A stretch of DNA of 64,000 nt from Candidatus Saccharimonadales bacterium. GTDB lineage: Bacteria > Patescibacteriota > Saccharimonadia > Saccharimonadales > UBA4665. The stretch is from positions 2,550 to 66,549 of the forward strand of contig DATIJK010000041.1 of the NCBI GenBank assembly GCA_035478715.1, read 5' to 3'. Below the pieces are notes generated by a model. That model saw only the letters and a program-made list of their open reading frames with translations, was not told the origin of the DNA and made no database searches. Position numbers and translations under genes: made by a program. How positions within the stretch are numbered: position 1 is the stretch's first letter; the number at the start of each line of letters is the position of its first letter. Shown here in pieces: positions 10,274-55,776 of the stretch.

Positions 10274-11746
10274 ATGAATCATAACGCACCCGGTAATCAG
10301 GGAGAGGAATCACTGCCTTTACCGGAAAATGACGAGTCTAAACGGCACAAAAAGCAGCGGAAATCCAAACGCAGCCACATGCAGAACGGCCGCGAGAATT
10401 CAGCTGGAAACATCGAGTCGGGCCGTGACCTTGAAAATGGCAATTCACGCGAGTATAGTGCTGATGACCTGAGCGAAGCGGTGATCTGGGTCCGCGAATT
10501 CGACCCGAACGATACTTCTGTCAAACCGCTAATAAACACCGAGCAGTATTTGGCCTCCCAAAAGATAGCTGCAAAATCCGAAACTCCTAATAAATCAGAA
10601 CAACCGTCACAAACAAGTAAAAATAATAGTAGGAATGCTGTGTCGCAAAAAATCGAACATTACGATCTACGAATGTCGTCTGAGCAGATCGATGACGCTG
10701 ATTCAGGGTACCTAAACCACGAACCAGATAAATCGCCCGAACGGAATTATTTCTGGAACCAAGCCGATATCTACCAGCCGCAAGGCCATGAAATGCTTCC
10801 GAATATTACAAAATCCGATAATCAAGGCCAAAACAGCGAAAATATTGAAAATCTTTATGATGCGGGAATCAATGATGATGCGACACTGGCTGAGGCTGTA
10901 AATCCGAATGATCCGTCATATGTTGATCACGAACCAGTTAGGTACCAAGAAAAAACGGTCGTAAAACCCCGTAAAAACCAAAAATCAGGTTTTATGGCTC
11001 GACGCCGTGAAAAACGTGCAGTACAATCGCAGCAAATGGAAGGCGAAACTTTCGATAGAATCGCGTCTACATCTCCATACAACGAGCTAATTCCGGAAGA
11101 AATGGGGCCAGTTGAAGCTGTGCGCGATACGTACGAACAGCCGGCAATTCTGAACGATGAAATCAGCAGACCCGCGGAAGTGGCCGACAGGCCGACGAGC
11201 AGATATCCCGAAATGCCTGTTTCCAAACAGAAGGAAAAAGTTGAGGAATCATATGCCGAACGCGGTTCTGATCACCCGGATGTCGAGTTATCCTTAGAAA
11301 AGACCGAACAATTGGATTTAGCACGGTCGATTCATATCGACAGTGTGAGCGTCTATGAAATGTTTACCGCCGGCCGGATAGACGAAGCTGGGTTGCACCG
11401 CATCATAGTTGAATTTTTACGCGGCGGCGACCTCCGCGATGTCATAAAGAGCGAGATAATCCGCCAGCAGCTTAAATTCGAACGCGACCCGCAATTACGC
11501 GACACTCCAGTAGATAAAAAAGCACCGTCAAAAGCCAGGACATCCAAGATCAAGAGCCGTACGAAATCGATTATCGACCCGGTGCGTAACAGAGACAGAA
11601 CTGAAAAACTGGCGGAACTCACACAGAAAACAATTGAGAAATCTCATGAATATCTGGACGACAACCCCAAAGCCGGGCAAATGATGAGCATCGCTGCCAT
11701 CGTCGTCATTTACCTGACGATTCTTATTGTCGCAATTGCAAAGTAG
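10274..11746 (+). CDS. Hypothetical low-complexity, highly charged protein with a single C-terminal TM helix (tail-anchored topology)
   Basis: About 490 aa rich in E/D/K/S/N/Q with no recognisable domain. The last ~25 aa, MMSIAAIVVIYLTILIVAIAK, are hydrophobic. Start is ambiguous (GTG 10256 or ATG 10274). Confidence 0.55.
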   Translation: MNHNAPGNQGEESLPLPENDESKRHKKQRKSKRSHMQNGRENSAGNIESGRDLENGNSREYSADDLSEAVIWVREFDPNDTSVKPLINTEQYLASQKIAAKSETPNKSEQPSQTSKNNSRNAVSQKIEHYDLRMSSEQIDDADSGYLNHEPDKSPERNYFWNQADIYQPQGHEMLPNITKSDNQGQNSENIENLYDAGINDDATLAEAVNPNDPSYVDHEPVRYQEKTVVKPRKNQKSGFMARRREKRAVQSQQMEGETFDRIASTSPYNELIPEEMGPVEAVRDTYEQPAILNDEISRPAEVADRPTSRYPEMPVSKQKEKVEESYAERGSDHPDVELSLEKTEQLDLARSIHIDSVSVYEMFTAGRIDEAGLHRIIVEFLRGGDLRDVIKSEIIRQQLKFERDPQLRDTPVDKKAPSKARTSKIKSRTKSIIDPVRNRDRTEKLAELTQKTIEKSHEYLDDNPKAGQMMSIAAIVVIYLTILIVAIAK

Positions 11747-11752
11747 TCACAA

Positions 11753-12601
11753 ATGCAGAAAATTATCCTCTATTACAAATTCGTACCATTGGCCGACCCG
11801 GACATGACGCGCCGCTGGCAAAATGAGCTGTGCACCCGATTAAATCTCCGTGGCAGGATTATTATCAGCAGACATGGCATTAACGGCACGGTCGGCGGTA
11901 ACATGGCAGATGTAAAAACCTATGTGCGCGAAATGAACAAGACGCCGGAATTCAAGGGTATCGAATACAAATGGAGCGATGGCATGCGCGAAGATTTTCC
12001 GAAACTTAGCGTCAAGGTCCGGGATGAGTTAGTCACGCTCGAGCCTGGCGAAAATTTTGACGTGTTTGATAAAGGAACGCCGCTACGGCCGAAAGCCTGG
12101 CATGAGTACATTCAAAAACACCCGGACGCAATAATTTTTGATGCCCGGAATGATTATGAATCCGAAATCGGCGAGTTCCGCAACGCCATCAAGCCGAAGA
12201 TGAAAACGTTCAAGCAGGTGAAAGAACACGTCGAAAAACTGCCAAAAGACAAGCCGGTGTTAACATACTGTACCGGTGATATCCGCTGCGAATACCTCAG
12301 CGCCTACATGAAACACAAAGGTTTCAAAGACGTCTATCATCTGGATGGCGGTATCGTGAAATACGGCGAAGAATTCGGCGACGAAGGCTATTGGGATGGC
12401 AAATGCTACGTATTCGACAAGCGGATGAAACTGGCTTTTTCGGATAAAAGTAAAGACATAGGCGTGTGCGCCCATTGCGGAGCGGCAACAAGCGAACAGG
12501 TCAACTGCGCTAAATTAAGCTGCAATTTACAATTCGTAGTCTGCGAATCATGCCAGACTAAAGAGCAGACGAGTTGCGAGCGGCATGCAGTTTCAGCGTA
12601 A
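11753..12601 (+). CDS. trhO: Rhodanese-domain protein of the TrhO/YceA (UPF0176) family, tRNA U34 hydroxylase-like
   Basis: YYKFVPLADPD..LRGRIIISRHGINGTVGG N-terminal domain; rhodanese active-site loop YCTGDIRCE; C-terminal Cys cluster CAHCG..C..C. Confidence 0.8.
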   Translation: MQKIILYYKFVPLADPDMTRRWQNELCTRLNLRGRIIISRHGINGTVGGNMADVKTYVREMNKTPEFKGIEYKWSDGMREDFPKLSVKVRDELVTLEPGENFDVFDKGTPLRPKAWHEYIQKHPDAIIFDARNDYESEIGEFRNAIKPKMKTFKQVKEHVEKLPKDKPVLTYCTGDIRCEYLSAYMKHKGFKDVYHLDGGIVKYGEEFGDEGYWDGKCYVFDKRMKLAFSDKSKDIGVCAHCGAATSEQVNCAKLSCNLQFVVCESCQTKEQTSCERHAVSA

Positions 12602-12604
12602 CTG

Positions 12605-13423
12605 TCAAATTACCTTCAAGAACTCTTTTGTTTTTTGCTCGATTGCAATGCGCGATTCGGGTGACAACTTGTCCCGATGAGGCAGAATGTTTATTACATT
12701 TGCTTGCTCAAGATTTATGCTGCTTCCATCAAAAAAGCCCACAAGTTTATTGATTACTGATTGCCAACATGTTTCGAGTGCCGTTATAAAGCTGTCACTG
12801 ACAAAGCAGATTTCGGGAATGCTTATTACGTTTGATATCGGACGGGAAAAGTACAGTTTATGCTCAAACTCAGTGTAGGTCGGAAAATCTCCGACGATAA
12901 ATCCATCAACAATTCTAGCACTAAAATCTCTGGTTAACTCGCATCGATCAAAAGCAAATGCATGATCCGTGGAGGGTTTGTCCAGCGTAGAGCGCAGTCT
13001 TGTCGTAGATGATGATTGCAAAGTTATAGCATTAATCAACGACTGTTCATCCCAAAGGTGAAACTCCAATTTGACACCATCACGTTCTGAAATCAGACTA
13101 AATTGCTTATAAACACCAAATTGGTATCCTCTTACTGCGTGAATCACTTCGCTTTCGCTAGCAATTAGCAACTCAGTGAGGTTTGAAGCATTTTCCGGTC
13201 TAATTAACAATTGGATGTCAATATCGGAGTCGATTGTGACACAATAATTTTTGCCGTAAGCCATTGAGCCGGTAACTACCATGTCGCTGACTCTATCTTT
13301 AAATTCATTATGGAGCTGGTCTATAATTTTTTGGCGTCGATCAGTTTCTGCTCGCGCAATTTTCGGATCGACCGGGGTGTATACGGTGCTATAGGTCACT
13401 ACTATTAACTTACTGTTAATCAT
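12605..13423 (-). CDS. Pol-beta-superfamily nucleotidyltransferase-domain protein, function unknown
   Basis: GS-x-DxD signature: VTGSMAYGKNYCVTIDSDIDIQLL. C-terminal ~170 aa unassigned. Track start 13435 is TTG; I prefer the ATG at 13423. Confidence 0.6.
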   Translation of the reverse strand: MINSKLIVVTYSTVYTPVDPKIARAETDRRQKIIDQLHNEFKDRVSDMVVTGSMAYGKNYCVTIDSDIDIQLLIRPENASNLTELLIASESEVIHAVRGYQFGVYKQFSLISERDGVKLEFHLWDEQSLINAITLQSSSTTRLRSTLDKPSTDHAFAFDRCELTRDFSARIVDGFIVGDFPTYTEFEHKLYFSRPISNVISIPEICFVSDSFITALETCWQSVINKLVGFFDGSSINLEQANVINILPHRDKLSPESRIAIEQKTKEFLKVI

Positions 13424-29471: not shown

Positions 29472-29548
29472 GGGCGCTTAGCTCAGTTGGCTAGAGCACC
29501 TCGTTTACACCGAGGGGGTCGGGGGTTCGAGCCCCTCAGCGCCCACCA
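29472..29548 (+). tRNA. tRNA-Val (anticodon TAC), CCA encoded
   Basis: Acceptor GGGCGCT/AGCGCCC, D-arm GCTC-AGTTGGCTA-GAGC, anticodon stem CCTCG/CGAGG with loop TTTACAC, T-arm GGGGG-TTCGAGC-CCCTC. Confidence 0.9.
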
Positions 29549-29578: not shown

Positions 29579-29590
29579 AAGTGGTTGTTG

Positions 29591-29710
29591 CCCGGGTTCG
29601 AACTCACGACCACCGGGGTCGGGGTGAGACCCGCCAGTGGCGGGTCGCAAGGCAATCTTCCGGAGCAAGCTTGCTTGCTGCCGTGAAGTTGCGAGCCTGC
29701 CGGAGGCAGG
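29591..29710. ncRNA. GC-rich multi-hairpin segment of unknown identity (candidate structured RNA or relic)
   Basis: About 67% GC by my count in an otherwise moderate-GC region. Perfect hairpins: GACCCGCC-AGT-GGCGGGTC (29628-29646), GCAAGC-TT-GCTTGC (29665-29678, nested in GGCA/TGCC and GCAA/TTGC helices) and CCTGCC-GGA-GGCAGG (29696-29710). Confidence 0.3.
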
Positions 29711-29732
29711 TCGAGCCCCTCAGCGCCCACCA
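29711..29732 (+). repeat. Exact 22-nt copy of the tRNA-Val 3' end (TCGAGCCCCTCAGCGCCCACCA)
   Basis: Identical to 29527-29548. No matching 5' acceptor strand or D/anticodon arms upstream, so it is a fragment and not a second tRNA. Confidence 0.9.
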
Positions 29733-29840
29733 TTCGACTCGCTTTGCTCGCTCATGGTAAACAACGAGTAAGAAAGGCGAGTTTTTGATTACTGCGTTAG
29801 TATTATGTGTGTCGAATGACCTTGAGCTTGTCGAAGGGCC
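29733..29840 (+). repeat. CCA-abutting element, copy A (about 108 nt)
   Basis: Starts right after CCA. Shares with copy B (55658-55776) the motifs TCGA(C/T)TCG, C(G/A)CTCATGGTAAAC, GACC(T/C)TGAGC and GTCGAAGGGCC. Its termini can pair (TTCGAC/GTCGAA; CTCATGGT/ACCTTGAG). Confidence 0.55.
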
Positions 29841-41459: not shown

Positions 41460-43487
41460 ATGAGTTCATCTAAAACCCAAGCGGAAGAGCGAATAGAGAA
41501 GCTTCGCATCCTGATAAGTGATTATCGATATCACTATCATGTATTGGATGAGTCTATCATGAGCGAGGCGGCGGCTGATTCGCTCAAACATGAACTCACG
41601 GAACTCGAAACGCAATTTCCCGATTTAATCACGCCGGACAGTCCATCGCAGCGTGTTGCGGGCGAACCGCTAAAGGGATTCAAGCAAGTCCGGCATAGTA
41701 CGCGGATGCTCAGTCTGAATGACGTATTCAACCGTGACGAAGTAGTAGCGTGGATTGAACGGATGCAGAAACTTGCGCCAGAAGCAAAGCCGGAATTTTT
41801 CATCGATCTTAAACTGGACGGTTTTGCTTGCTCATTGATTTACCAGGACGGTAAATTCGTCCAGGCAGTAACACGCGGCGACAGTTTTGTCGGCGAAGAC
41901 GTGACTATGAACGTCCGTACGATGGAAAGCGTGCCGCTTGAACTGCGGCCAAATAAAAAATACTCAGAATTTTTGAAAGGCCGGACAGAAATACGCGGCG
42001 AAGTCATAGTGTACAAAAAAGATTTCGAAGCGTTGAATAAAGCCCGTGAAGCCGAAGGTAAACCGGTTTTCGCAAACCCGCGGAATTTCGGAGCAGGCAG
42101 CATCCGGCAATTGGATCCAAAGCTGGCTGCCGAGCGGCCACTCAGGTTCCGCGCTTGGGATTTATTGCGCGACGACCCATCAGAAGTGCCGACAAATGAA
42201 TTCGCTTATGATGCGATCATGCATTTAGGAATCGCATCTGGCAGTCAGTACAAAGTTCTGAAAGATGTCGATGCAATCATGAAATTTGCCGACGAATGGG
42301 AGCAAAAACGCCATAAATTGCCTTATAACACCGATGGGTTAGTAATCAAAATTAATGATAGGAATTTGTACGCTCAATTGGGGGTGGTGGGCAAGGCGCC
42401 ACGGGCAGCTGTCGCATATAAATATGCTGCTGAAGAAGCTACGACTGTTGTCAGGGATATCGTAATAAGCATTGGACGCACAGGCGCAGCAACGCCAGTG
42501 GCCGTTTTTGAGCCGGTACAGGTCGCGGGTACAACCGTCCAACATGCCAGTTTGCACAATGCTGATGAAATCGCCCGAAAAGATATCCGTGTGGGCGATA
42601 CGGTCATTATTTTCAAAGCTGGCGATATCATCCCGCAAGTATCGCGCGTACTTGCTGAGCTACGTCCAAAATCTGCCAAAAAATTCGATATGGATGCGGA
42701 ACTAAAAAGGCAGTACCCGGAACTAGAATTCGTGCGTCCCGAAGGCGAAGCCGTTTTCCGAGTAAAAGGCGCGACCGGCAAATTATTGTTAAAAGGCGCG
42801 TTGATCCATTTCGCATCGAAAGGGGCGCTAGATATCGATACGCTCGGTGAAAAGAATGTTGCCGCGCTTGTTGATGCAAAATTGGTGCACGACATGGCTG
42901 ATATTTACGGTCTAAAAAAAGACCAGGTCTTAGAACTAGAACGGTTCGCTGAAGTGTCCGCACAGAAGCTGATAGACGGCATACAGGCAACGAAATCGCC
43001 CGAGTTACCGCGCTTTATCTACGGGCTTGGGATACGCCATGCCGGTTCGCAGACGGCCATTGATCTTGCAGAGCATTTCGGTTCGCTGGAAAAATTGAGC
43101 AAAGCCACGATGGATGAATTGCTCCAGGTCGACGGCATCGGCGAAACAGTGGCAGAGTCGATCCTGGCCTGGTTCGCAGACGAAGACAATCAGAAAATGC
43201 TGGAAAAATTCGAGAAATTCGGCGTTAACCCCCACTACGAGTCAAAGGCCCGCGGACCCCTTCACGGCAAAGCTTTCGTAATCACCGGCGGACTAGAACA
43301 TGGCACCCGCGACGAATTCGCCAATAAGATCCGCGAACTCGGCGGTACATTCCAATCTAGTGTAGGTAAAGACACAAGCTATCTCGTGGTTGGCCAGAAC
43401 GTCGGCGCCAGTAAACTCGCCAAAGCTGAAAAACTGGGAACCAAGCAGATTAGCGAACAAGACTTACTTTTGCTTTTGAAAAAATGA
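41460..43487 (+). CDS. ligA: NAD-dependent DNA ligase LigA
   Basis: Ia domain (YHYHVLD), adenylation lysine KLDG (IDLKLDGFA), OB fold, HhH repeats (GIRHAG..VDGIGE), C-terminal BRCT (GKAFVITG). Track ORF starts at 41271; the ATG at 41460 fits the family N-terminus. Confidence 0.95.
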   Translation: MSSSKTQAEERIEKLRILISDYRYHYHVLDESIMSEAAADSLKHELTELETQFPDLITPDSPSQRVAGEPLKGFKQVRHSTRMLSLNDVFNRDEVVAWIERMQKLAPEAKPEFFIDLKLDGFACSLIYQDGKFVQAVTRGDSFVGEDVTMNVRTMESVPLELRPNKKYSEFLKGRTEIRGEVIVYKKDFEALNKAREAEGKPVFANPRNFGAGSIRQLDPKLAAERPLRFRAWDLLRDDPSEVPTNEFAYDAIMHLGIASGSQYKVLKDVDAIMKFADEWEQKRHKLPYNTDGLVIKINDRNLYAQLGVVGKAPRAAVAYKYAAEEATTVVRDIVISIGRTGAATPVAVFEPVQVAGTTVQHASLHNADEIARKDIRVGDTVIIFKAGDIIPQVSRVLAELRPKSAKKFDMDAELKRQYPELEFVRPEGEAVFRVKGATGKLLLKGALIHFASKGALDIDTLGEKNVAALVDAKLVHDMADIYGLKKDQVLELERFAEVSAQKLIDGIQATKSPELPRFIYGLGIRHAGSQTAIDLAEHFGSLEKLSKATMDELLQVDGIGETVAESILAWFADEDNQKMLEKFEKFGVNPHYESKARGPLHGKAFVITGGLEHGTRDEFANKIRELGGTFQSSVGKDTSYLVVGQNVGASKLAKAEKLGTKQISEQDLLLLLKK

Positions 43488-44047
43488 TAAGCCATGAGCT
43501 AATAAGCAGGCGAGTCAATCCTGCAATTTCGGAATATATTGTAAATCTCTGGGGTCGGATAAGTTATGTATGGAGTTATGACACGGCTTGCCCTAAACCG
43601 GAATATCGTCCGATACCGCAGGATAGTTCATCGTCACTTGGCCAGTGCGGACCGGCAAATTACATGCTCGCGAGAGGACTATCGTATAGATTTCCTGAAA
43701 CGAATCCCAGGATGGTGATTTATGGGAAGGTTAGACTTGCAATAGGCGGTGTTGCTATAAGAGACCACGGTTGGGCATTGTTTGATGCCGGTGCGCAAAA
43801 TGTGGTCGGGGATGTTGCCCTTGGACAACTCGATATGCCCGGTCAGCGTAGTTGGGACATCGTTTGTGTCATGCCTGAATCTGAACTTGCGGAAAAAGGA
43901 GTTTATTTTGAGGGCGGAAGGGAGTACTCACTCGATGAATTATGGGAGCATTACAACACCGATCCATTGTGCCGAGAGTACGAATTTGCTGAGCGCATAT
44001 GGTTACTGGAACATCGGTTAGTTGAAGAGTTTTCCATTCCCGTATAA
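43484..44047 (+). CDS. Hypothetical protein (translationally coupled to ligA)
   Basis: ATGA overlap with the ligA stop. 187 aa. No family recognised. Contains LGQCGPANYM and RDHGWALFD, a possible Cys/His pair. Confidence 0.5.
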   Translation: MISHELISRRVNPAISEYIVNLWGRISYVWSYDTACPKPEYRPIPQDSSSSLGQCGPANYMLARGLSYRFPETNPRMVIYGKVRLAIGGVAIRDHGWALFDAGAQNVVGDVALGQLDMPGQRSWDIVCVMPESELAEKGVYFEGGREYSLDELWEHYNTDPLCREYEFAERIWLLEHRLVEEFSIPV

Positions 44048-47214: not shown

Positions 47215-47261
47215 CGCTTTAAAATAAGATAATTTTTTGTTAGAATTACCCGAGTTCACAT

Positions 47262-47338
47262 GGGGCATTAGCTCAGTTGGCTAGAGCGCTTCAATGGCAT
47301 TGAAGAGGCCATCGGTTCAAGTCCGATATGCTCCACCA
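47262..47338 (+). tRNA. tRNA-Ala (anticodon GGC), CCA encoded
   Basis: Acceptor GGGGCAT/ATGCTCC with the G3:U70 identity pair, anticodon stem CTTCA/TGAAG with loop ATGGCAT, T-arm ATCGG-TTCAAGT-CCGAT. Confidence 0.9.
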
Positions 47339-47340
47339 TT
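47327..47340 (+). repeat. Left copy of 14-nt direct repeat TATGCTCCACCATT (tRNA-Ala 3' end plus 2 nt)
   Basis: Exact match to 49624-49637. Confidence 0.85.
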
Positions 47341-47356
47341 TGAAATATCCGATGCG

Positions 47357-47395
47357 AAAAGTTCGAGGATTTGCTTACTCGGACTTTTTCTTTAT
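47357..47395 (+). terminator. Intrinsic terminator after tRNA-Ala(GGC)
   Basis: AAAAGTTCGAG-(10 nt)-CTCGGACTTTT followed by TCTTTATT. Confidence 0.65.
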
Positions 47396-47488
47396 TACAA
47401 ACCAGCATTTTCTATTAGAGTACTGCAATGCGGTGTGGAACCATTCTCATTAATAAGTTGTCGAATAATTTACCTGCGAAGCGAGGTA

Positions 47489-48217
47489 TTAAAGTGCCAC
47501 GGGACGGTTTTTCTGGTAGAAGGTACAGCCGGTTCCAGAGCCCGAAAAATAAAGGAAAAATATCGAGGTGCGGGTATTTGGTACACACATCCACCTGCCT
47601 TGAACCCCAACACCGCCATTCGGGTTATCAGACCAGAAAACATTTACCAGCTGAAACCGACCAGTACTGGACAGCGGTGATCCTATGGCTATAAATTGTG
47701 TTCCAGTCGCTCCGTGTTGGCCGCCGTTATCGGGACACCAAGTCAAATCGGCCGCCGAGTTAGCGTCCTGGTCACCCACACAGAGCGGATTGGCAACACC
47801 CGCCTGTTCGATTTTTAAAATCCACCTGCTATAGTTACCGTGGTTTAATCTATAAGTTGTAAATGGACACATTTTTCCCCCATTTTCGCCATTTCTTCCA
47901 TCGGTAACATGTCCATGATTACAATGATCCGTCATAAACGCATACTTAAAGTTGTTATTAATGTCATCCGCTTTGTAGCCGATAATAGGTGTGGTACCTG
48001 GTTGAAAACCACCACCTTTGCGATTTAGGCATATCGATGTTGATTCCACCGTACATATTTGATTAACAGGTTCGGCTGCCGTGTTGTATGTGTGTTGTAT
48101 TTTCGGAACGATCAAAGCAATCAGGGCAACGCCGGTTGCTACTGCCAAAATCAGATAATGCTGTTTAGCAAATGCAATCCGAGATCTGGATTTTCGCTTT
48201 GTACGGCTAGCTTTCAT
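47489..48217 (-). CDS. Hypothetical secreted protein, possibly beta-trefoil (ricin-B-like) lectin fold
   Basis: K/R-rich tail plus TM signal anchor. Repeated Cys-containing modules (ICLNRKGGG.., LCVGDQDANSAADLTWC..GTQF, GRWMCV). Assignment is weak. Confidence 0.45.
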   Translation of the reverse strand: MKASRTKRKSRSRIAFAKQHYLILAVATGVALIALIVPKIQHTYNTAAEPVNQICTVESTSICLNRKGGGFQPGTTPIIGYKADDINNNFKYAFMTDHCNHGHVTDGRNGENGGKMCPFTTYRLNHGNYSRWILKIEQAGVANPLCVGDQDANSAADLTWCPDNGGQHGATGTQFIAIGSPLSSTGRFQLVNVFWSDNPNGGVGVQGRWMCVPNTRTSIFFLYFSGSGTGCTFYQKNRPVAL

Positions 48218-48317
48218 GCCTTCAGCTTACATTATACTTATGCTTAATGTAAAAAGTTTATAGAAATTGTAATCTTGAAAAGTTGTCATTTTAGTAAATA
48301 TATATTATAATAAACTT

Positions 48318-48890
48318 ATGAGTAGCCGTATCATTCCTGGCACGGTGGAGATTGCGGATAGGTTCACCGACAAACCTTTCGAAGCCCTAATTATCAATCA
48401 AGAAACAACCGAACCAAACCCGGTACGCCTCTTTGCCGCGATTCAACTTGCCGAATCTACACATCATCAAATCGATAGGGGCAGACGGCTGGTACTTTCT
48501 GGGCTTCCTGCGGCTATTATGGCCTACCCCGGTGAGGTTGCCGGCATCTTTCCTGTCCAAATTACAGCCGAAATGGCCAGACAAAATTTAGTTGATGCAA
48601 TGAGCCGCGGTGCAGTTGCGATATCCCATGCCGTTATCGTCGAACTAATGGGCATACCAGAATCGGATGAAACCAACTTCACCTGGACAACAATTGGCGA
48701 AAGCCGGGTCAAGATCACCGGGCAGGATCTTCAAGACTACGTCGTAGACAAAGCTAGAGAAGTCATTATTTTCGACAACGGTGAGATCGGGAAAATTACG
48801 ATCCCCAACAGACACGCCGACGAAAATTCAATAGAAGCCCTCCTACCGTATAACGGCCAATTCGAAGTAGTTGCAACAATTAGATTTTAA
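48318..48890 (+). CDS. Hypothetical protein (orphan)
   Basis: 190 aa, soluble, no motif recognised. TATAAT at 48306-48311 lies 6 nt before the ATG, with no SD. Confidence 0.5.
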   Translation: MSSRIIPGTVEIADRFTDKPFEALIINQETTEPNPVRLFAAIQLAESTHHQIDRGRRLVLSGLPAAIMAYPGEVAGIFPVQITAEMARQNLVDAMSRGAVAISHAVIVELMGIPESDETNFTWTTIGESRVKITGQDLQDYVVDKAREVIIFDNGEIGKITIPNRHADENSIEALLPYNGQFEVVATIRF

Positions 48891-49024
48891 AACCACTAAT
48901 AGCTATCCGTTGAGAAATGTCCGGCGGGGACGAGAGTGGAGCGGAAGTAACTATGTTATTTTAGATTAATCAACACATACGTATGTTATGACAAAGTATC
49001 ATATAATATTGTATAATATATTTT

Positions 49025-49573
49025 ATGAAATCTCTGTCTGAAGCTTCTGAGGCTTTAAGGTATAACCCTTTAGATCGTATTGTTGATGAGGAAAGAAATG
49101 CTGCGGTCACGCTTCTTACCGACTTCGTATTACAGACGCTCAATTACGATCCAAGACTCACGCCGCCAATGCCTGTTAAGGGCACTCACGATTTTATTAG
49201 ATCGCTGCATGTTGTACGAAAAAGGGCACTTGTAACGGACTTTCATGCTGGAAGTCTAAGTTTTGAATTGGCAGCATCCGGAGAGCAATGCCCGGACACG
49301 CAATTGGTGTTTCGTATTGATGATGAACCTGAAAAAGCCAGGAACTACAGAGCCAATTTTGGAGTATATCAGCGACCCGGGGATGGTCAGAGGATTGTAG
49401 GACAAGCATTTAACAGGAACGGAATGCCCGATATAATCGGCATGGATGACCTCCAAGTCATAACGATGGAAATAGATGAGTTGGTGGCAGCTGCTCGAGC
49501 CGGGGTAAATGATTTACGAATAATGTCCGCTGCAGAGTGTCTAGAGTTTTTTGAGGCTGAAGCCGATCTGTAG
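49025..49573 (+). CDS. Hypothetical protein (orphan)
   Basis: 182 aa, acidic, no motif recognised. TGTATAAT at 49010-49017 lies 7 nt before the ATG, with no SD. Confidence 0.5.
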   Translation: MKSLSEASEALRYNPLDRIVDEERNAAVTLLTDFVLQTLNYDPRLTPPMPVKGTHDFIRSLHVVRKRALVTDFHAGSLSFELAASGEQCPDTQLVFRIDDEPEKARNYRANFGVYQRPGDGQRIVGQAFNRNGMPDIIGMDDLQVITMEIDELVAAARAGVNDLRIMSAAECLEFFEAEADL

Positions 49574-49623
49574 TCAACTTACTTATTTTAGACACTTTAG
49601 TGCAAAGTTCTAAAAACGTTAAT

Positions 49624-49637
49624 TATGCTCCACCATT
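49624..49637 (+). repeat. Right copy of 14-nt direct repeat TATGCTCCACCATT
   Basis: Exact match to 47327-47340. Flanking bases differ on both sides. Confidence 0.85.
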
Positions 49638-49671
49638 ACGCTTATGATTATTTTTGATATAATTTTGAGCA

Positions 49672-49974
49672 GTGAACAATTCGGGTATTAAACGACACTT
49701 GACGCTCATCGGCAGTATTGTAGCATTCGTAGTCACAACCTATTTTTCAGCCTTGCCGTCATCAAATATAAGAACTGATTTATTCATCATTGAAATCGGT
49801 TATTTTTTTGCAGGATTGCTTTTGGCCAATTATATTTCAGGCTTTATGAAATCACATAATCCAAAGTCTAGTTCAATGAATTTCTGGCTCATGACCGGCA
49901 TAACGGTGGGTGCTTTCATACTGTTTAACGTCGTTGCGTTTATTTACGCATTGTTTACGCAACCCTTCTTTTAA
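49672..49974 (+). CDS. Small hypothetical membrane protein (3 TM)
   Basis: GTG-initiated 100-aa hydrophobic ORF. No family recognised. Confidence 0.4.
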   Translation: MNNSGIKRHLTLIGSIVAFVVTTYFSALPSSNIRTDLFIIEIGYFFAGLLLANYISGFMKSHNPKSSSMNFWLMTGITVGAFILFNVVAFIYALFTQPFF

Positions 49975-50033
49975 TAGCATCACTTTTTATGCTCACCCCA
50001 ATAGGGGTTATCTATTATATATTTTGAACGATT

Positions 50034-51272
50034 TCAACGGTTGCGGTTTGGTATCAGATATATAAAGAGATACAGAAGTATTAGCCCTGCCAAGACTAAT
50101 GCTCCGACTCCGATGACTAGCGACCGTTTGTGGGCTGTATTTTTACCTGATACCGAGGTTGTGGCTGTATCAGTAGTTGATGCGCTGCCTGTAGAATCCG
50201 TGTCCATTGTATTTGAATCTTGATTGCCCGATGAATTCGTCGGCACATCATTTGTAGTCCCGGAAGTCGTACCTGTGCTGCTTGCTGGCGAATTACTCGG
50301 ATGTACGTTTGAAGGCGGGTGGCCCGGTGACGGTGCTGGTGTCGGTTTAGGTGTCGGGGCAGGGCTTGGAGTGGGATGTGGCGTTGGAGAGGGGGACGGG
50401 GTTGGCGATGGCGATGGCGATGGCGGCGGTGCCGGAGGCGGCGGAGGCGTAGGGTTAACAGCGCTCTTTTTCCAGACCCGGACATAGTCAGTCTTCAACT
50501 GGTACGACGTTCCGGTTTTGCAGCCGCCGGAACAATCGAGAGAAAATATTAGGTATTGCGGCGCCCCGCCATCGTTGGACGTATAAGACCGGACGAGTTT
50601 GCCGTCCCAATAAATGTAATCTTTACCTTTCTCGCGGTCCATCGCATACGTATGCCACCCGTTAGACCAAGTGCCGGCAATCGTACCTGAGTTGCTCGCG
50701 CCACTTGGCGAATGGTAGTTTGTAGTGGCGGTCCCTAAGCCTTCGAATATATCGCTTTCGCCATCTGTAGGCCAACTTTGTCCATCTGTCCAAAATGCCG
50801 GCCAGTTGTATATGGTAGATCCGCTCCCCGGGACATACATGCGTGTTTCAACAGCGTAACCGGTACCGAAAGTGAAACCGCCGCCATTGGTTTGAGAAGG
50901 GTCTGTATCAATCGTCGCGCCGGAAGATGATGATGCGAGTGTTAGTACCGCGTAACCGCCCGATACCGAGACATTCTTAGCCTGCATGTAGACACCATTA
51001 TCATTATTTACCTTTCCGCCATTGAACCAGCTCGGGCTCCAGTAATTAGTGTTCAAACTTGTACCGTTAAACTCATCATCAAAGACCAAGCTCCAGTTGC
51101 CGGAAATTCCGGCAGGAACGACGGCCGCAAAACTATTGAAAATCATGAGGACGCCGAATATACCGACAGCAGTGGCAGTTGCAATCATTGCTGAATAACG
51201 TTTGCTATTCCTATTCCAGTTCGTTAATTTTTGGTTTTTCTTTGTGCTAATTTTGCGTTTTTTCATAATCAA
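50034..51272 (-). CDS. Secreted GH16-family glycoside hydrolase with Pro/Ser/Thr linker and C-terminal TM anchor
   Basis: Signal anchor; DDEFNG..; catalytic box GESDIFEGLG (ExDxxE type); WHTYAMD; YWDGKLV. PTPSPSP-type linker. Terminal hydrophobic helix followed by NRNR. Confidence 0.75.
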   Translation of the reverse strand: MIMKKRKISTKKNQKLTNWNRNSKRYSAMIATATAVGIFGVLMIFNSFAAVVPAGISGNWSLVFDDEFNGTSLNTNYWSPSWFNGGKVNNDNGVYMQAKNVSVSGGYAVLTLASSSSGATIDTDPSQTNGGGFTFGTGYAVETRMYVPGSGSTIYNWPAFWTDGQSWPTDGESDIFEGLGTATTNYHSPSGASNSGTIAGTWSNGWHTYAMDREKGKDYIYWDGKLVRSYTSNDGGAPQYLIFSLDCSGGCKTGTSYQLKTDYVRVWKKSAVNPTPPPPPAPPPSPSPSPTPSPSPTPHPTPSPAPTPKPTPAPSPGHPPSNVHPSNSPASSTGTTSGTTNDVPTNSSGNQDSNTMDTDSTGSASTTDTATTSVSGKNTAHKRSLVIGVGALVLAGLILLYLFIYLIPNRNR

Positions 51273-51276
51273 CTAA

Positions 51277-52473
51277 TTAATGTGTGGCATTTACAGTAAA
51301 CCCATTGCCGTAAAACTTCTCCGGCACCCCGCCGGTAGTGCAGATCTCCCAACCGGCTGAAAGATTGGCTACAGACGAGCCCTTTTGCATAAACGGATAG
51401 TTCTGACCGGGCACATTATGTGTCTCGAGCCATGTGACCATGGCTTTGATATTAATGGTGCCTGATGTAGTCGGCAAAGCCGGCCTATCTGCTTCTGTAG
51501 CACCGAGCTTAAATACGATCGCACCGCACGAATCATCAATTGACTGGTCGCAGGTCCCGTCGGCATGCATAGGGTTCTCACCGTCGCAAACGTGCCACGC
51601 CACACCATCAATCATCACGTTGTTTGCTACCACACCCCAGTCGTTGGCGCCGTTATTCCACGATGAAGGGCAGTCTCCGTTGTTGGTGAAATCGTACTGG
51701 ATCATCAGCTCATAGTCTGCCCAATCGTTGGGCGAATTCGGCTCCTTGAACCAGTCGTCGTGCATTGCCCACGCCGAAGTATGGGAGTTGATGGGCATAG
51801 ATAAATTGTAAGTACTTGTCAGTGTCTTGTAATCGTCCACTACGCCGGTATATCCATGCGCCCACACGTTCGAATATGCCGAAACGCTGTTATGCCCGGC
51901 GGGAGTCATATTTGTGATAACGAAATTTTGGGCGCTGTTGGCTTGCAGTGTCGACGTTGATGGAGTCACACATGTTGGGTCGTCGGTGTCGACCAGGTCG
52001 CCTAGTGCGTCGGCACACGTCGGACTCCATACGTGGCTGTCTATTTCGTTGTCCAAACTCGTGGAATCGTTTTGGCCGGTGAAATGAACTGAGTCCTGCG
52101 GGAATCCACACGCGCTGTCGACAATGCTTCCTGCTGCGTTTTTTCCAGCGCTGTAGTCCCATGCACCATTTTGGAAAACAGGTGCGGCAGATGTGCAAGC
52201 CCACGATGAGGTTGTTGCCGTGCCAAACTTTACAGCCTTTCCGCCGCTGACAGTACCATCAGTTTGTTGGGATGCTGACCCGGATAAAGCTCCATTTTCA
52301 GCTTCGCTGTTGGCAGTAAATGTCGCTGCACGGGGATTAACAACAAAGAGCATGCCGATAAAAGCAACGACTATGACAACGACAAATGCTAGCGGCTTGT
52401 CGGCTATTCGTTTTTTAAATTTTCGGATAGTATGCGATGCCATCTCATGCTTTATTCGGTTACGCTTATTCAT
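51277..52473 (-). CDS. Secreted GH12-like glycoside hydrolase with N-terminal signal anchor
   Basis: NSEAENGALSG..SGGKAVKFG motif; nucleophile box DYELMIQ (GH12 DYELMIW); IDGVAWHV; acid/base box LSAGWEICTTGG. 4-bp gap to the GH16 gene downstream. Confidence 0.7.
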   Translation of the reverse strand: MNKRNRIKHEMASHTIRKFKKRIADKPLAFVVVIVVAFIGMLFVVNPRAATFTANSEAENGALSGSASQQTDGTVSGGKAVKFGTATTSSWACTSAAPVFQNGAWDYSAGKNAAGSIVDSACGFPQDSVHFTGQNDSTSLDNEIDSHVWSPTCADALGDLVDTDDPTCVTPSTSTLQANSAQNFVITNMTPAGHNSVSAYSNVWAHGYTGVVDDYKTLTSTYNLSMPINSHTSAWAMHDDWFKEPNSPNDWADYELMIQYDFTNNGDCPSSWNNGANDWGVVANNVMIDGVAWHVCDGENPMHADGTCDQSIDDSCGAIVFKLGATEADRPALPTTSGTINIKAMVTWLETHNVPGQNYPFMQKGSSVANLSAGWEICTTGGVPEKFYGNGFTVNATH

Positions 52474-52536
52474 GTCGTACTATACACCAATCAAGGCCAA
52501 AAACTTACATACTCTAAAAACTTGCGATCAGATACG

Positions 52537-52564
52537 AAAAAAGTACCCCAAAGAAGGAGTACTT
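52537..52564 (-). terminator. Intrinsic terminator of the RRM-protein gene
   Basis: On the minus strand: AAGTACTCC-TTCTTT-GGGGTACTT followed by TTTTTT. Confidence 0.7.
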
Positions 52565-52619
52565 TTAAAAAGAGCTTTGATATTCAAAATTTGAATATCT
52601 AATTTTATTTTAATTCCGA

Positions 52620-52925
52620 TTAGAATGAGCGTCGGAAATCCCGGCCACCACTACCGCCACCACTTGAACGCCGGTCTTCTTGCGGGCGGGCCTGGTTTAC
52701 CACCACAGCGCGTCCGTTAAGCTCTTTACCGTTTAAGTTTTTGATGGCATTCTGACCGTCTTTCAGTTCTTCCATCTCTACAAATCCAAAGCCTTTTGAT
52801 TGGCCGCTGAATTTATCCTTAATTACAGTCGCGCTTACAACTTTGCCCTGATCGGCGAAAAATTGTTCGAGCTCCTCATCAGTAACGCTGTATGCTAATC
52901 CACCTACATAAAGTTTCATTGCCAT
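52620..52925 (-). CDS. RRM-type RNA-binding protein with Gly/Arg-rich tail
   Basis: RNP-2 LYVGGL and RNP-1 KGFGFVEM. C-terminal RRSSGGGSGGRDFRRSF. GGAAGGA RBS. Confidence 0.85.
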   Translation of the reverse strand: MAMKLYVGGLAYSVTDEELEQFFADQGKVVSATVIKDKFSGQSKGFGFVEMEELKDGQNAIKNLNGKELNGRAVVVNQARPQEDRRSSGGGSGGRDFRRSF

Positions 52926-53122
52926 AGTTAATAAATCCTTCCTTTAGTTTATCGCTCGCGTTCATTATTTCTGCTCGCGATGATATGTAGTGTCTGGGAG
53001 GACTTTCTATGACAACGGAGAGGTAATAGTAACCACTTGCTACGGGTAGTATATCATGGCCTGATGCTGTAATCGCAAGTAAAGGTGTCATTACTCCTTG
53101 AAAAGGCGTATACTAAGTGTAG

Positions 53123-53620
53123 ATGTATAAGTTCATGTTAGACGAGACTAATGATGCGTATGATATTTATATCAACCTTATATCGTCGTCCGCAGGGCAC
53201 TACATTAGCCGTCGGCCCCACCTGATTGGGCTTGTCAAAGAACTGTTATCGAATATCACATTGCGTGGAGCGCGAATCGTTATAGAACAGGATATGGGGC
53301 GGGGTATCGGCACTTCCGATATCGTAGCCACAAGCGACACGGATATCATTTATTATGCACAACCACTTAAATCAGAAGTATATTCACGATTTGCAAAAAA
53401 CCGGTATCCGCAATCAAGCAGCCTGTTAACGGTAGTTGTTGCCCGGGATAGTGATGGCAACTATGAGGTCTGTGATGCGTGGGTTGGCAGCAAGCACCCA
53501 GCATTTCCTGGCGATCAACATGCGACAGCCGAAAGCAAAGAATATTGGAAAACGCACGCGCTCGTACACGATGCACAAGTAGTGCAGTCGAAGACTATAA
53601 CAAAAACGTGTCCGTACTGA
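53123..53620 (+). CDS. Hypothetical protein
   Basis: 165 aa. TATACT box 10 nt upstream. No family recognised. Confidence 0.5.
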   Translation: MYKFMLDETNDAYDIYINLISSSAGHYISRRPHLIGLVKELLSNITLRGARIVIEQDMGRGIGTSDIVATSDTDIIYYAQPLKSEVYSRFAKNRYPQSSSLLTVVVARDSDGNYEVCDAWVGSKHPAFPGDQHATAESKEYWKTHALVHDAQVVQSKTITKTCPY

Positions 53621-53766
53621 TTCTGTCGTAAAGAATTGTTGCTTTAATCATAAAATTGTGCTAATGTTATAGTATTGTTTCTGATGAATCCGAATTATTG
53701 TGCGAATCGTTGTTCATTGCAGACAATCGATTCAACACTTTCTAAATTCAAAGGATTCATTTTTTT

Positions 53767-54957
53767 ATGTCTCGATATAACCAAACACGTTCTCGCAACT
53801 TCAGCCAATCAAGGCCCGTACGCAATCGGAGCACCAGACGGCAACCGCAGAAAACCTATATTCATCCATCTAAGTTCGTCCGTGCTGCACGGCCGCGTAC
53901 CGAAGTGACATATACTTCGGAGCATTCATTCGCTGATTTCAATTTGCACCCGCTTTTGCAGCGTAATTTGAACGCGATGGGCTATACCAGCCCCTCACCC
54001 ATCCAGGATAAGACGATACCGGTAGGTTTGCGCGGTAATGATATTGTCGGCATTGCCAACACTGGTACTGGTAAAACTGCAGCGTTTGCTATTCCAATTT
54101 TCCAGCGGCTCTTAAACGATGCAAATTCTAAAGCTATTATCCTTGCCCCTACGCGCGAACTGGCACAGCAGATCGAAGAACAATGCCGCCAAATCGCCAA
54201 AGGCAGCAGGATTGCCGGCGCATTACTTATCGGTGGCACCGCCATGGGGTCTCAATTACGGGATCTTCGCAGCAACCCTCGAATCATCATTGGTACACCC
54301 GGAAGAATAAAGGACCATTTGGATCGTCGCTCATTGAGCTTGGCAGACTGCAACCTTGTCGTGTTAGACGAAGTCGACCGCATGTTAGATATGGGTTTTG
54401 TCCATGATATCCGCTATATTCTCACGCAAACCAATCCTATTAAACAGAGTTTTTATTTTTCTGCGACGCTTGATTCCAGAGTAACGTCGATAATTGAAAG
54501 CTTTTCTGTGGATCCGATTCAAATCTCCGTAAAATCAGGAGAAACAAGTGATAACATCGAGCAAAACGTCGTAACATATTTATCAAGCACAGATAAAATC
54601 GACCGGCTACACGACTTGTTAATACAGGATCCGAGCTCTAAAACACTGGTATTTGATGATACGCACCGGAGTGTTGAAAAGCTTGCTAAAGAATTAGACG
54701 CACGAGGTTTCTCAGCGGATTCAATTCATGGCGGCAAATCTCAACCACAGCGTCAGCGGGTACTGAAAAAATTTAAGGACAGCGACATAAGAATTCTGGT
54801 AGCAACTGACGTAGCTGCCCGCGGACTTGATATATCAGATATCACGCATGTAATTAATTACTCGCTCCCACAAACATACGATGATTATGTGCACCGTATC
54901 GGCAGGACAGGCCGAGCTGGAAAGATCGGGTACGCTTTAACATTTATTGAAAAATAA
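53767..54957 (+). CDS. DEAD-box ATP-dependent RNA helicase (motif II is DEVD)
   Basis: Q motif (F..F...GY..PSPIQ), motif I NTGTGKTAAF, Ia PTRELA, Ib TPGR, II LDEVD, III SAT, VI HRIGRTGRAG. Basic N-terminal extension. Confidence 0.9.
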   Translation: MSRYNQTRSRNFSQSRPVRNRSTRRQPQKTYIHPSKFVRAARPRTEVTYTSEHSFADFNLHPLLQRNLNAMGYTSPSPIQDKTIPVGLRGNDIVGIANTGTGKTAAFAIPIFQRLLNDANSKAIILAPTRELAQQIEEQCRQIAKGSRIAGALLIGGTAMGSQLRDLRSNPRIIIGTPGRIKDHLDRRSLSLADCNLVVLDEVDRMLDMGFVHDIRYILTQTNPIKQSFYFSATLDSRVTSIIESFSVDPIQISVKSGETSDNIEQNVVTYLSSTDKIDRLHDLLIQDPSSKTLVFDDTHRSVEKLAKELDARGFSADSIHGGKSQPQRQRVLKKFKDSDIRILVATDVAARGLDISDITHVINYSLPQTYDDYVHRIGRTGRAGKIGYALTFIEK

Positions 54958-55037
54958 CCTTGCGAAGTAGCAGTAATCTTTGCTCGGTGTATTGAAAAAT
55001 TTATGTGCGTGGTACGATAGTATTCTAGGAGTACGTT

Positions 55038-55403
55038 ATGGCAAAACAGGATTTCGGTGGTGTTTGGCACAGTATTTATCATTACAAGCACCCGGATTTA
55101 CCGGGACTGCAGAAAAGTGAGCATGACGTTAAGATTTATCGCAAGGGTGACGAACTAATCATTGAAAGTCTCCCGAACGATGAAAACTCGTATCTTATAG
55201 TACATCTAAAGCTTGATGGCAATATCGCAACTGGTTCGTGGGAAGAGCACACGTCGCCAACTGGTGCCCATAAGCGCGAAATATATTCTGGCGCGGTACA
55301 ATTCGTTTTAAGTGATGACGGCAATGATTTTGACGGAATGTATTTAACCTTCGACAGGCGCAACTTCGTCAAAAGCAACTACTGGCACCTATACCGCCAA
55401 TAA
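55038..55403 (+). CDS. Hypothetical protein
   Basis: 121 aa, soluble, beta-rich composition. No family recognised. Confidence 0.45.
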   Translation: MAKQDFGGVWHSIYHYKHPDLPGLQKSEHDVKIYRKGDELIIESLPNDENSYLIVHLKLDGNIATGSWEEHTSPTGAHKREIYSGAVQFVLSDDGNDFDGMYLTFDRRNFVKSNYWHLYRQ

Positions 55404-55516
55404 TAGAAGCAACTCGTTTGTATAATTTTCTAATGCGGTTGTCCGTACTTGTAAAACATTGATTGGTTTATAATAATTAATTGAGTTCAGTGTTGTGATA
55501 TAGAAAAAAGAGCAGC

Positions 55517-55546
55517 CCGAGCAAAAAATCGCACTTTTTTGCTCGG
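55517..55546. terminator. Bidirectional-type hairpin terminator
   Basis: CCGAGCAAAAAA-TCGCAC-TTTTTTGCTCGG, a perfect 12-bp stem with A and T tracts built in. Confidence 0.6.
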
Positions 55547-55581
55547 CGCGATGGGAAAAACCGCAGGTTTGTCTCATTTTT

Positions 55582-55657
55582 GGGGACGTAGCTCAGTTGA
55601 TAGAGCGCCGCATTCGCATTGCGGAGGTCGTGGGTTTGACTCCCATCGTCTCCACCA
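55582..55657 (+). tRNA. tRNA-Ala (anticodon CGC), CCA encoded
   Basis: Acceptor GGGGACG/CGTCTCC with G3:U70, anticodon stem CCGCA/TGCGG with loop TTCGCAT, T-arm GTGGG-TTTGACT-CCCAT. Confidence 0.88.
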
Positions 55658-55776
55658 CTCGATTCGGCAGTTAATTCTGCCTCACTCATGGTAAACCAGT
55701 TGGATTTGTAAGATTAAAGTCTTTGCAGAATATATTTTGATCCGAAACGAAAGACCCTGAGCAAAGTCGAAGGGCC
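55658..55776 (+). repeat. CCA-abutting element, copy B (about 119 nt)
   Basis: Starts at the base after CCA. Carries the same four motif blocks as copy A in the same order (CTCGATTCG.., CACTCATGGTAAAC, GACCCTGAGC, GTCGAAGGGCC). The interior differs. Confidence 0.55.

Follow-up and report, generated by a model that had tools for sequence, protein, structure and literature searches.

A 2.3-kb integrase-less islet bounded by a 14-nt direct repeat of the tRNA-Ala(GGC) 3' end in a soil Saccharimonadales genome

The tRNA-Ala(GGC) repeat and the DNA that it encloses

The stretch of DNA analysed here (64,000 nucleotides of contig DATIJK010000041.1, positions 2,550 to 66,549; hereafter the window) comes from a soil bacterium of the order Saccharimonadales (Saccharibacteria/TM7). 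This phylum comprises ultra-small epibionts whose genomes are reduced; to our knowledge, gene gain and loss among them are poorly documented. This report deals with an islet of 2283 bp that adjoins a tRNA gene in the window and is bounded by two copies of the 3' end of that gene.

The tRNA-Ala(GGC) gene, the putative integration target, occupies positions 47262-47338 (+ strand). It is intact and its CCA is encoded (ARAGORN; Rfam tRNA model, 64.9 bits). The sequence TATGCTCCACCATT, consisting of the final 12 nt of this gene and the 2 nt downstream, occurs exactly at two sites on the + strand, in direct orientation. Copy 1 (47327-47340), the putative core of the left attachment site attL, comprises the last T-stem nucleotide, the acceptor 3' strand, the discriminator, CCA and TT. 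Copy 2 (49624-49637), the putative attR core, is found farther downstream, within the 98-nt spacer that separates the last islet gene from the next gene. The bases flanking the two copies differ on either side. An earlier note, made from the letters of the window alone, had described this exact repeat with differing flanks, the 2283 bp and the three open reading frames (ORFs) enclosed; ARAGORN, Rfam and sequence matching confirm the description. Recurrence of the 14-mer at many sites, which the note held would speak against its reading, was not encountered: a search allowing up to two mismatches found only these two copies in the window. Upstream of the 14 nt of copy 2 there is no likeness to tRNA-Ala(GGC) (5/17 identities to the T-arm), and a fuzzy search of the window detected none of the degenerate tRNA-end copies that would mark older att sites. 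The islet begins at 47341, directly at the tRNA 3' end, and extends to 49623. A hairpin near its start (47361-47392, + strand; GTTCGAG-N10-CTCGGAC followed by a T-run), read directly from the sequence, looks like the terminator of tRNA-Ala(GGC).

The three islet ORFs are isl1 (47489-48217, - strand; 242 aa), isl2 (48318-48890, + strand; 190 aa) and isl3 (49025-49573, + strand; 182 aa). All three have much higher codon scores in frame than in the shifted frames, indicating that they are real coding sequences. None matches a Pfam, PHROG, PADLOC or NCBIfam family, and word-indexed homology searches returned only the query itself in each case. The earlier note's statement that no family is recognisable thus holds for isl2 and isl3 but not for isl1, since an exhaustive HMMER search retrieved 65 representative clusters of isl1 relatives, the best at 41% identity. 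By cluster look-up these relatives appear only as 'hypothetical protein' on short metagenome contigs. Alignment defines a family of signal-peptide proteins of 200-260 aa with eight conserved cysteines and motifs such as LCxNRxGGG, NNxF, CPFT and VNRxWSD, and with no Pfam domain in its members. Isl1 itself is a signal-anchored, secreted protein that shares the eight cysteines. Weak profile matches of the family to ThreeFoil, a designed beta-trefoil (E 0.002), and to the ricin B lectin domain (E 0.006) suggest that isl1 is possibly a beta-trefoil lectin. Some family members have Ala-rich signal peptides that we read as actinobacterial in style, others have Lys/Asn-rich N-termini resembling that of isl1.

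Isl2 and isl3 are soluble orphans: each found only itself among 5.8 billion proteins, and scans of viral contigs with both revealed no relatives. Comparison of the two ruled out that they are paralogues of each other. Among the profile searches proposed by the earlier note, those with isl1 gave relatives and the weak lectin-like matches; the single-sequence AlphaFold2 models of isl2 and isl3 are unusable, with a predicted local distance difference test score of 41 and 34, respectively. Both genes are preceded by near-consensus promoter motifs on the + strand, TTGTCA-17-TATAAT (48283-48311), ending 7 nt before the isl2 ATG, and ATGACA-18-TATAAT (48988-49017), ending 8 nt before that of isl3. 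The position of the -10 box 7-8 nt before the start codon predicts leaderless transcripts. This layout was considered as a mark of foreign origin and rejected, because 13 of the 62 ORFs in the window share it. Indeed, a -10-like hexamer 5-10 nt before the start is found in these 13 ORFs and a Shine-Dalgarno-like motif in only 15; judging from these motifs, leaderless expression seems common in the host genome.

The G+C content of the islet (43.7%, against 46.5% for the window) falls in the 3rd percentile of equal-sized windows and its tetranucleotide distance in the 95th. Codon scores, expressed per codon and averaging 0.25 +/- 0.067 for 39 reference genes, are more than 3 standard deviations low for isl1 (0.03) and isl3 (0.02) but host-like for isl2 (0.195). 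Beyond copy 2, two genes for secreted proteins, a GH16 protein (0.11) and a 398-aa protein (0.10), score low as well. In the comparison of composition proposed by the earlier note, the islet as a whole and two of its three genes deviate, yet isl2 is normal and the distal neighbours are low too, so that composition indicates accessory DNA rather than the 2.3 kb specifically.

A variable tract and its counterparts in relatives

All relatives of the window identified through CorA are metagenome-assembled genomes of the same group. The nearest public ones, from genome and metagenome scans, are at most ~72% identical in this protein, and exact look-ups of isl2 and CorA returned nothing. Upstream of the islet, the order p187b-Ham1-CorA-tRNA-Ala(GGC) is kept in relatives; downstream synteny is not. 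By tblastn, isl1, isl2 and isl3 are absent from all 160 related corA-tRNA-Ala loci, which contain no isl1 homologues either. The alternative named by the earlier note, that the three genes are syntenic core content of relatives, is therefore not what was found.

In the nearest clade the downstream part of the backbone consists of p121, tRNA-Ala(CGC) and an ABC ATPase. The window retains p121 (55038-55403) upstream of tRNA-Ala(CGC) (55582-55657, + strand), as do many relatives, and this second tRNA gene is the conserved distal anchor of the tract. Across 20 relatives the two tRNA-Ala genes are separated by a gap of 58 bp (locus L107) to 7.9 kb (L007); in the window the gap is 8.2 kb. Other short gaps are those of L144 (93 bp) and L086 (106 bp). 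The tRNA-Ala(GGC) of L086 differs by 1 nt from that of the window and is followed by TTATTT, and the ~70 nt upstream of its tRNA-Ala(CGC) are recognisably conserved with window positions 55510-55581. The tRNA-Ala(GGC) flank is a hypervariable hot spot. Relative to the state seen in L086, everything from 47339 to ~55000 has been inserted or rearranged. As to the unoccupied flank that the earlier note proposed to look for, only 106 nt separate the tRNA-Ala genes in L086, but a tRNA joined directly to the sequence from 49638 onward was not found among relatives no closer than ~72% in CorA.

The remainder of the tract (49638-55037; tblastn against 163 loci, and Pfam) encodes a 100-aa membrane protein, the secreted GH16 protein, the secreted 398-aa protein, an RRM protein, a 165-aa ORF and a DEAD-box helicase. 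It lies outside the 2.3-kb unit, yet it is equally absent from the related loci. It follows that copy 2 is not a border between foreign and native DNA, and that the 2.3 kb can be no more than the unit nearest the tRNA within a larger variable tract. The repeat splits this tract into the tRNA-proximal 2.28-kb unit and a distal unit of ~5.4 kb, the arrangement that successive accretion of units at an att site would produce (PMC5704250; PMC3146451). Within the distal unit, the GH16 and 398-aa proteins are encoded by adjacent genes (50034-52473, - strand) that are absent from the related loci. Both proteins are N-terminally anchored, and the GH16 protein has a Pro-rich linker and a C-terminal hydrophobic segment. 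The pair is probably part of an older accreted island.

A look-up of isl1 returned only three near-identical Logan contigs (L081, L082 and L083, from SRR9179559, SRR9179562 and SRR9179561, respectively). These are independent assemblies, 99.9-100% identical and with the same arrangement, all of which end at the tRNA. Their breaks fall within or at the start of tRNA-Ala(GGC), at window positions 47251-47309, and probably reflect a branching of the assembly graph where co-occurring species have this tRNA in common. The contig ends were considered as evidence of excision and rejected, being a probable assembly break; population heterogeneity at the tRNA-Ala(GGC) site might also have produced them.

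Among the related loci, 141 ORFs are situated no more than 700 nt 3' of a tRNA, and two of them carry Resolvase and Recombinase domains. With these two as tblastn queries against the loci and the window, large serine recombinase genes were found in relatives on the reverse strand, directly 3' of tRNAs. The neighbouring tRNA is tRNA-Ala(GGC) in at least five loci (L019, L085, L064, L067 and L055), tRNA-Ala(CGC) in two (L021 and L106) and tRNA-Gly in L121. The L085 recombinase (11031-12923, - strand) is intact, 630 aa long and CcrC/CcrB-like (7e-23), and its ORF extends across the tRNA in antisense. Behind it come an XRE-type ORF and two further ORFs of 269 and 755 aa, and the arrangement is reminiscent of an integrative mobilisable element (IME) or integrative conjugative element (ICE). 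In eight loci, TTACTCGAACC, an inverted copy of the T-loop, lies 10 nt after the tRNA; together with the tRNA end it forms a 44-bp quasi-palindrome with CCA at its centre. In the window, TTACTCGGAC (47375-47384), inside the post-tRNA hairpin, resembles this arm of the recombinase-bearing relatives. As a motif of this type has 2 matches in the window against 1.5 expected, its link to the recombinase-element arms is suggestive only.

Four related loci contain islets that are likewise bounded by tRNA 3'-end repeats, here of 20-34 nt, and that carry foreign-looking kb-scale cargo but no intact recombinase gene. At tRNA-Leu(GAG) in L064, a 34-nt repeat encloses 1.8 kb with HxlR and amidase genes; at tRNA-Val in L155, the islet is 1.26 kb long and contains a NUDIX gene. 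The G+C content of these two islets is 7-8 points below that of their loci (48% against 56% and 46% against 53.5%, respectively). A 2.2-kb islet at tRNA-Gly in L038 contains one unknown ORF. The fourth, 4.3 kb at tRNA-Gly in L035, encodes CsoR and DUF305 together with fragments read as a Cu-ATPase pseudogene, a copper-resistance remnant. A 131-aa ORF adjoining the L035 repeat is weakly similar to a serine recombinase C-terminus (blastp E 0.004). It has no match in Pfam or NCBIfam, which leaves the blastp match as the sole support for a recombinase remnant; on this similarity L035 is a probable decay intermediate. The window islet fits this class of recombinase-less tRNA-repeat islets, as the member with the shortest repeat.

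Origin of the islet

How often such a repeat would arise by chance depends on the question asked. The 5e-4 given in the earlier note is too optimistic, for it is valid only for a single 14-mer specified beforehand, and the window contains 19 maximal exact direct repeats of at least 14 nt, ~13 of which are chance-like, with no obvious cause. A look-elsewhere probability that a repeat touches the 3' end of any of five tRNAs, downstream and somewhere in the window, is ~0.01 (allowing for the five tRNAs, ~25 offsets around the tRNA end and 12 kb downstream). It drops to ~4e-4 per window once the repeat is further required to contain the tRNA terminus and to be intergenic, both of which hold for the TATGCTCCACCATT repeat. 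An empirical census of 311 tRNAs in 2.16 Mb (the 163 fetched loci and the window) is in agreement: long-range (>500 nt) repeats of tRNA 3' ends outside tRNA genes amount to the four cases of 20-34 nt and the window islet, and no chance-like long-range repeat of at least 14 nt was seen at the 97 other tRNA-Ala(GGC) loci.

We favour, with moderate confidence, the interpretation that the 14-nt repeat is the scar of a site-specific integration at the tRNA 3' end, the recombinase having been lost or never present. We observed directly that the repeat exists, that relatives lack the genes, that the site is a hot spot and that the window encodes no recombinase; we infer that a recombinase made the repeat and, possibly, that its gene was lost rather than never present. 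In this scheme, a site-specific recombinase would have inserted DNA right at the 3' terminus of tRNA-Ala(GGC), thereby regenerating the tRNA end at attL (47327-47340) and displacing the original end to attR (49624-49637). What remains would be a 2.28-kb non-autonomous unit that kept its att sites while the recombinase is gone, with a secreted Cys-rich protein and two cytoplasmic orphans as cargo, each gene with its own host-type promoter. Owing to its tRNA-proximal position, this unit would probably be the youngest in the accreted variable tract from 47339 to ~55000. The leading candidate for the enzyme, by analogy, is a large serine recombinase like those at tRNA-Ala(GGC) in relatives. An intact empty site is predicted to read CCGATATGCTCCACCATTACGCTTATG and an excised circle AACGTTAATTATGCTCCACCATTTGAAATATCC at the junction; the corresponding strings for searching reads are GGTTCAAGTCCGATATGCTCCACCATTACGCTTATGATTATTTTTG and GTTCTAAAAACGTTAATTATGCTCCACCATTTGAAATATCCGATGCG.

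Several results weigh against an integration scar. The islet contains no recombinase or recognisable remnant according to Pfam, NCBIfam and PHROG, which bears out the earlier note, and tblastn with the serine recombinases of relatives finds no match anywhere in the 64-kb window. Neither an excised circle nor a genome with the tRNA directly joined to 49638 onward was found among relatives that reach at most 72% identity in CorA, and the three Logan contigs, from the same population, are all islet-occupied. Copy 2 marks no boundary of conservation or composition, the DNA beyond it being as variable and partly codon-atypical. The host-like codon usage of isl2 and the host-type promoters of the islet genes imply that any acquisition was not recent, or that the genes arose locally. 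The window-level chance probability of ~0.01 is not negligible, and 14 nt is the shortest tRNA-end repeat in the census. Finally, the islet repeat begins at the end of the T-stem and not in the T-loop, and the recombinase-bearing relatives have no long repeat within 9.7 kb; indeed, none of the predicted right ends of their elements was found in the 9.7-kb flanks. A large serine recombinase is therefore a candidate enzyme only. Altogether, the attL/attR interpretation put forward in the earlier note gains indirect support, while an empty site, a foreign/native boundary at copy 2 and the mobilisation in trans that the note considered do not.

It is unlikely, in our judgement, that the 14-mer at 49624 is a mere coincidence in a fast-evolving, rearrangement-prone tract of surface-protein and orphan genes. 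Such a coincidence would be in keeping with the ~13 chance-like repeats among the 19 in the window, with the islet repeat being the shortest of all the tRNA-end repeats, with the lack of any change in conservation or composition at 49637 and with the lack of a recombinase in the window. Moreover, TT after CCA is common in relatives, leaving effectively 12 tRNA-specific nucleotides. However, a chance repeat would have to be direct, downstream and intergenic and to include the tRNA terminus, for which ~4e-4 are expected per window; the 97 related tRNA-Ala(GGC) loci offer no chance-like case; and the four unambiguous repeat-bounded islets show that the process operates in this lineage. Very unlikely, to our mind, is a local origin, in which copy 2 would be the relic of a partial tRNA duplication (an eroded repeat of the short elements described below, or slippage) and the genes came later. 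The lineage abounds in short-range duplications of tRNA 3' ends (~35 of 311 tRNAs), and the L155 cargo appears to be inserted inside such a unit. Yet upstream of copy 2 neither the T-arm (5/17 identities) nor the core of such an element can be discerned, and two independent events would be needed where integration requires one.

A further model supposes that the islet is a still-active non-autonomous cassette that had no recombinase from the start or has ceased to need its own, being moved in trans by one encoded elsewhere in the genome or on a co-resident element, in the manner of a cis-mobilisable element (CIME), and belonging to the same system as gene-free, repeat-bounded elements of 100-180 nt. 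We doubt this model, although the repeat copies are exact, with no sign of decay, and the small elements are abundant at tRNA 3' ends in relatives, some of them in tandem, a pattern that calls for either repeated insertion or a recombinase working in trans. Furthermore, kb-scale cargo stands beside such mini-elements in L035, L038 and L155, and large serine recombinases target tRNA-Ala(GGC) in relatives. Against these points, no recombinase is encoded within the 64 kb, the three Logan samples display no polymorphism, the islet lacks mini-element sequence (a covariance model, R1, has no match in the window), its repeat differs in extent from theirs and no other copy of the islet occurs among the 5.8 billion proteins. 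In the most far-reaching version, which appears improbable to us, non-autonomous elements ranging from 100-180-nt units to kb-scale cassettes would form one system throughout the lineage, all inserting at tRNA 3' ends and moved in trans by a few large serine recombinases encoded elsewhere, and the islet would be one of its live members with cargo. If true, it would provide these reduced epibiont genomes with a mechanism for exchanging surface and orphan genes.

An integration scar at this site has counterparts among known systems, and the islet is probably a decayed or non-autonomous CIME-like islet, of a kind already known. For integration at tRNA and transfer-messenger RNA (tmRNA) genes, a scheme of sublocations is attributed to Williams (2002), as cited in PMC3146451. 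The islet resembles islands at tRNA/tmRNA 3' ends in its position next to an intact tRNA, in the direct repeat reproducing the tRNA 3' end and in its strain-specific, partly atypical gene content. It differs from them in lacking an integrase gene, in being only 2.3 kb long and in having a 14-nt repeat whose first nucleotide is the last T-stem base, where theirs starts in the T-loop or anticodon loop. CIMEs, defined in Firmicutes, are decayed ICEs or IMEs that kept attL and attR and lost the genes for integration and transfer (PMC5704250). Like them, the islet would have kept putative att sites (if the repeat is an att core), has no recombination or transfer genes and is the tRNA-proximal unit of a seemingly accreted tandem tract; unlike them, it has no helper element in the window and its host is a Saccharibacterium rather than a member of the Firmicutes. 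A possible origin by decay from an ICE or IME would have left no pseudogene remnants in the islet, the only hint being TTACTCGGAC at 47375.

The closest documented analogue, in our comparison, is provided by the ssrA islands of Dehalococcoides. These stand in tandem with direct repeats of the 3' end and a CcrB-like recombinase beside attL, and some units lack an integration module (PMC3146451). Similarities are the hot spot downstream of a small RNA gene and, in relatives of the window, a CcrB/CcrC-like recombinase on the reverse strand by attL. Differences are the tRNA target, a repeat of 14 nt instead of 20 nt that does not start from the T-loop and, in the window, the absence of an integration module. 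A literature search found no paper on tRNA-targeted islands in Saccharibacteria. The locus and its counterparts in relatives mark the tRNA-Ala(GGC) flank as a recurrent landing pad in these bacteria, where large serine recombinase elements integrate and decayed or non-autonomous islets persist. The secreted and orphan proteins of the islet are plausible material for host interaction. As such, the islet is an ordinary scar, whose value is that of a data point for the dynamics of mobile elements in the Candidate Phyla Radiation.

Structured elements trailing tRNA genes and other observations

The short elements mentioned above are more unusual than the islet and deserve a separate look. Their hosts are tRNAs followed, 100-175 nt downstream, by a copy of 14-28 nt of their own sequence from T-loop to CCA; Ala, Val, Leu, Phe, Gly and Lys tRNAs are represented. 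Like the islet, such elements lie directly 3' of the tRNA and end in a direct copy of its 3' end. In contrast to the islet, they are 100-180 nt long and gene-free, contain covarying hairpins and have a repeat that starts in the T-loop; no sequence is shared between the two. Some units are found in tandem, with three of them at a 157-nt period in L038. These elements show that tRNA 3' ends are actively being duplicated in the lineage.

In the window, a single such element is present, behind tRNA-Val(TAC) (29472-29548). It consists of a terminator hairpin, a GC-rich structured insert of 162 nt and then an exact 22-nt copy of the tRNA-Val end from T-loop to CCA, TCGAGCCCCTCAGCGCCCACCA, at 29711-29732. 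Folding of the RNA from 29583-29732 yields -80.6 kcal/mol (z = -3.6). No Rfam family matches the trailing elements, the tRNA-Val insert included.

In one family, termed B, each unit begins with the T-stem 5' strand of the tRNA upstream, continues with TTYGG and a hairpin of ~70 nt, and closes with the rest of the T-arm, the 3' acceptor strand and CCA. Pairing in the inner hairpin amounts to 96.5%, with compensatory changes in 11 of 13 pairs. None of 500 shuffles reaches the observed values and slid controls pair at 30-48%. The covariance model R1 retrieved 27 good copies, of which 25 lie on the same strand 3' of a tRNA, at a distance of 37-95 nt or in tandem, and the other two at contig ends. 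Examples are L016:1440-1534, L038:11158-11564 (the three tandem units), L025:11311-11399 and L152:970-1063, with ~23 more; the tRNA hosts of these structured elements are Ala, Phe, Val, Leu and Arg. A second family, A, has the inverted T-loop motif ACTCGAAC in common with the arms of the recombinase elements. This motif was observed 23 times within 120 nt 3' of tRNAs, against 3.8 expected. The trailing elements look like an undescribed class of mini-elements or non-coding RNAs in soil Saccharimonadales; we know of no published description of them.

Two collinear motifs, CTCRCTCATGGTAAAC and GTCGAAGGGCC, occur as pairs with a spacing of 83/85 nt at window positions 29747-29840 and 55681-55776, that is, just past the tRNA-Val repeat copy and just past tRNA-Ala(CGC). 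Neither is present in the 163 related loci. Upstream of p187b-Ham1-CorA, an ORF of 187 aa (43484-44047, + strand) scores lower in codon usage than all its neighbours (-0.03), and none of the 163 loci contains a counterpart; possibly it is a further recent gain.

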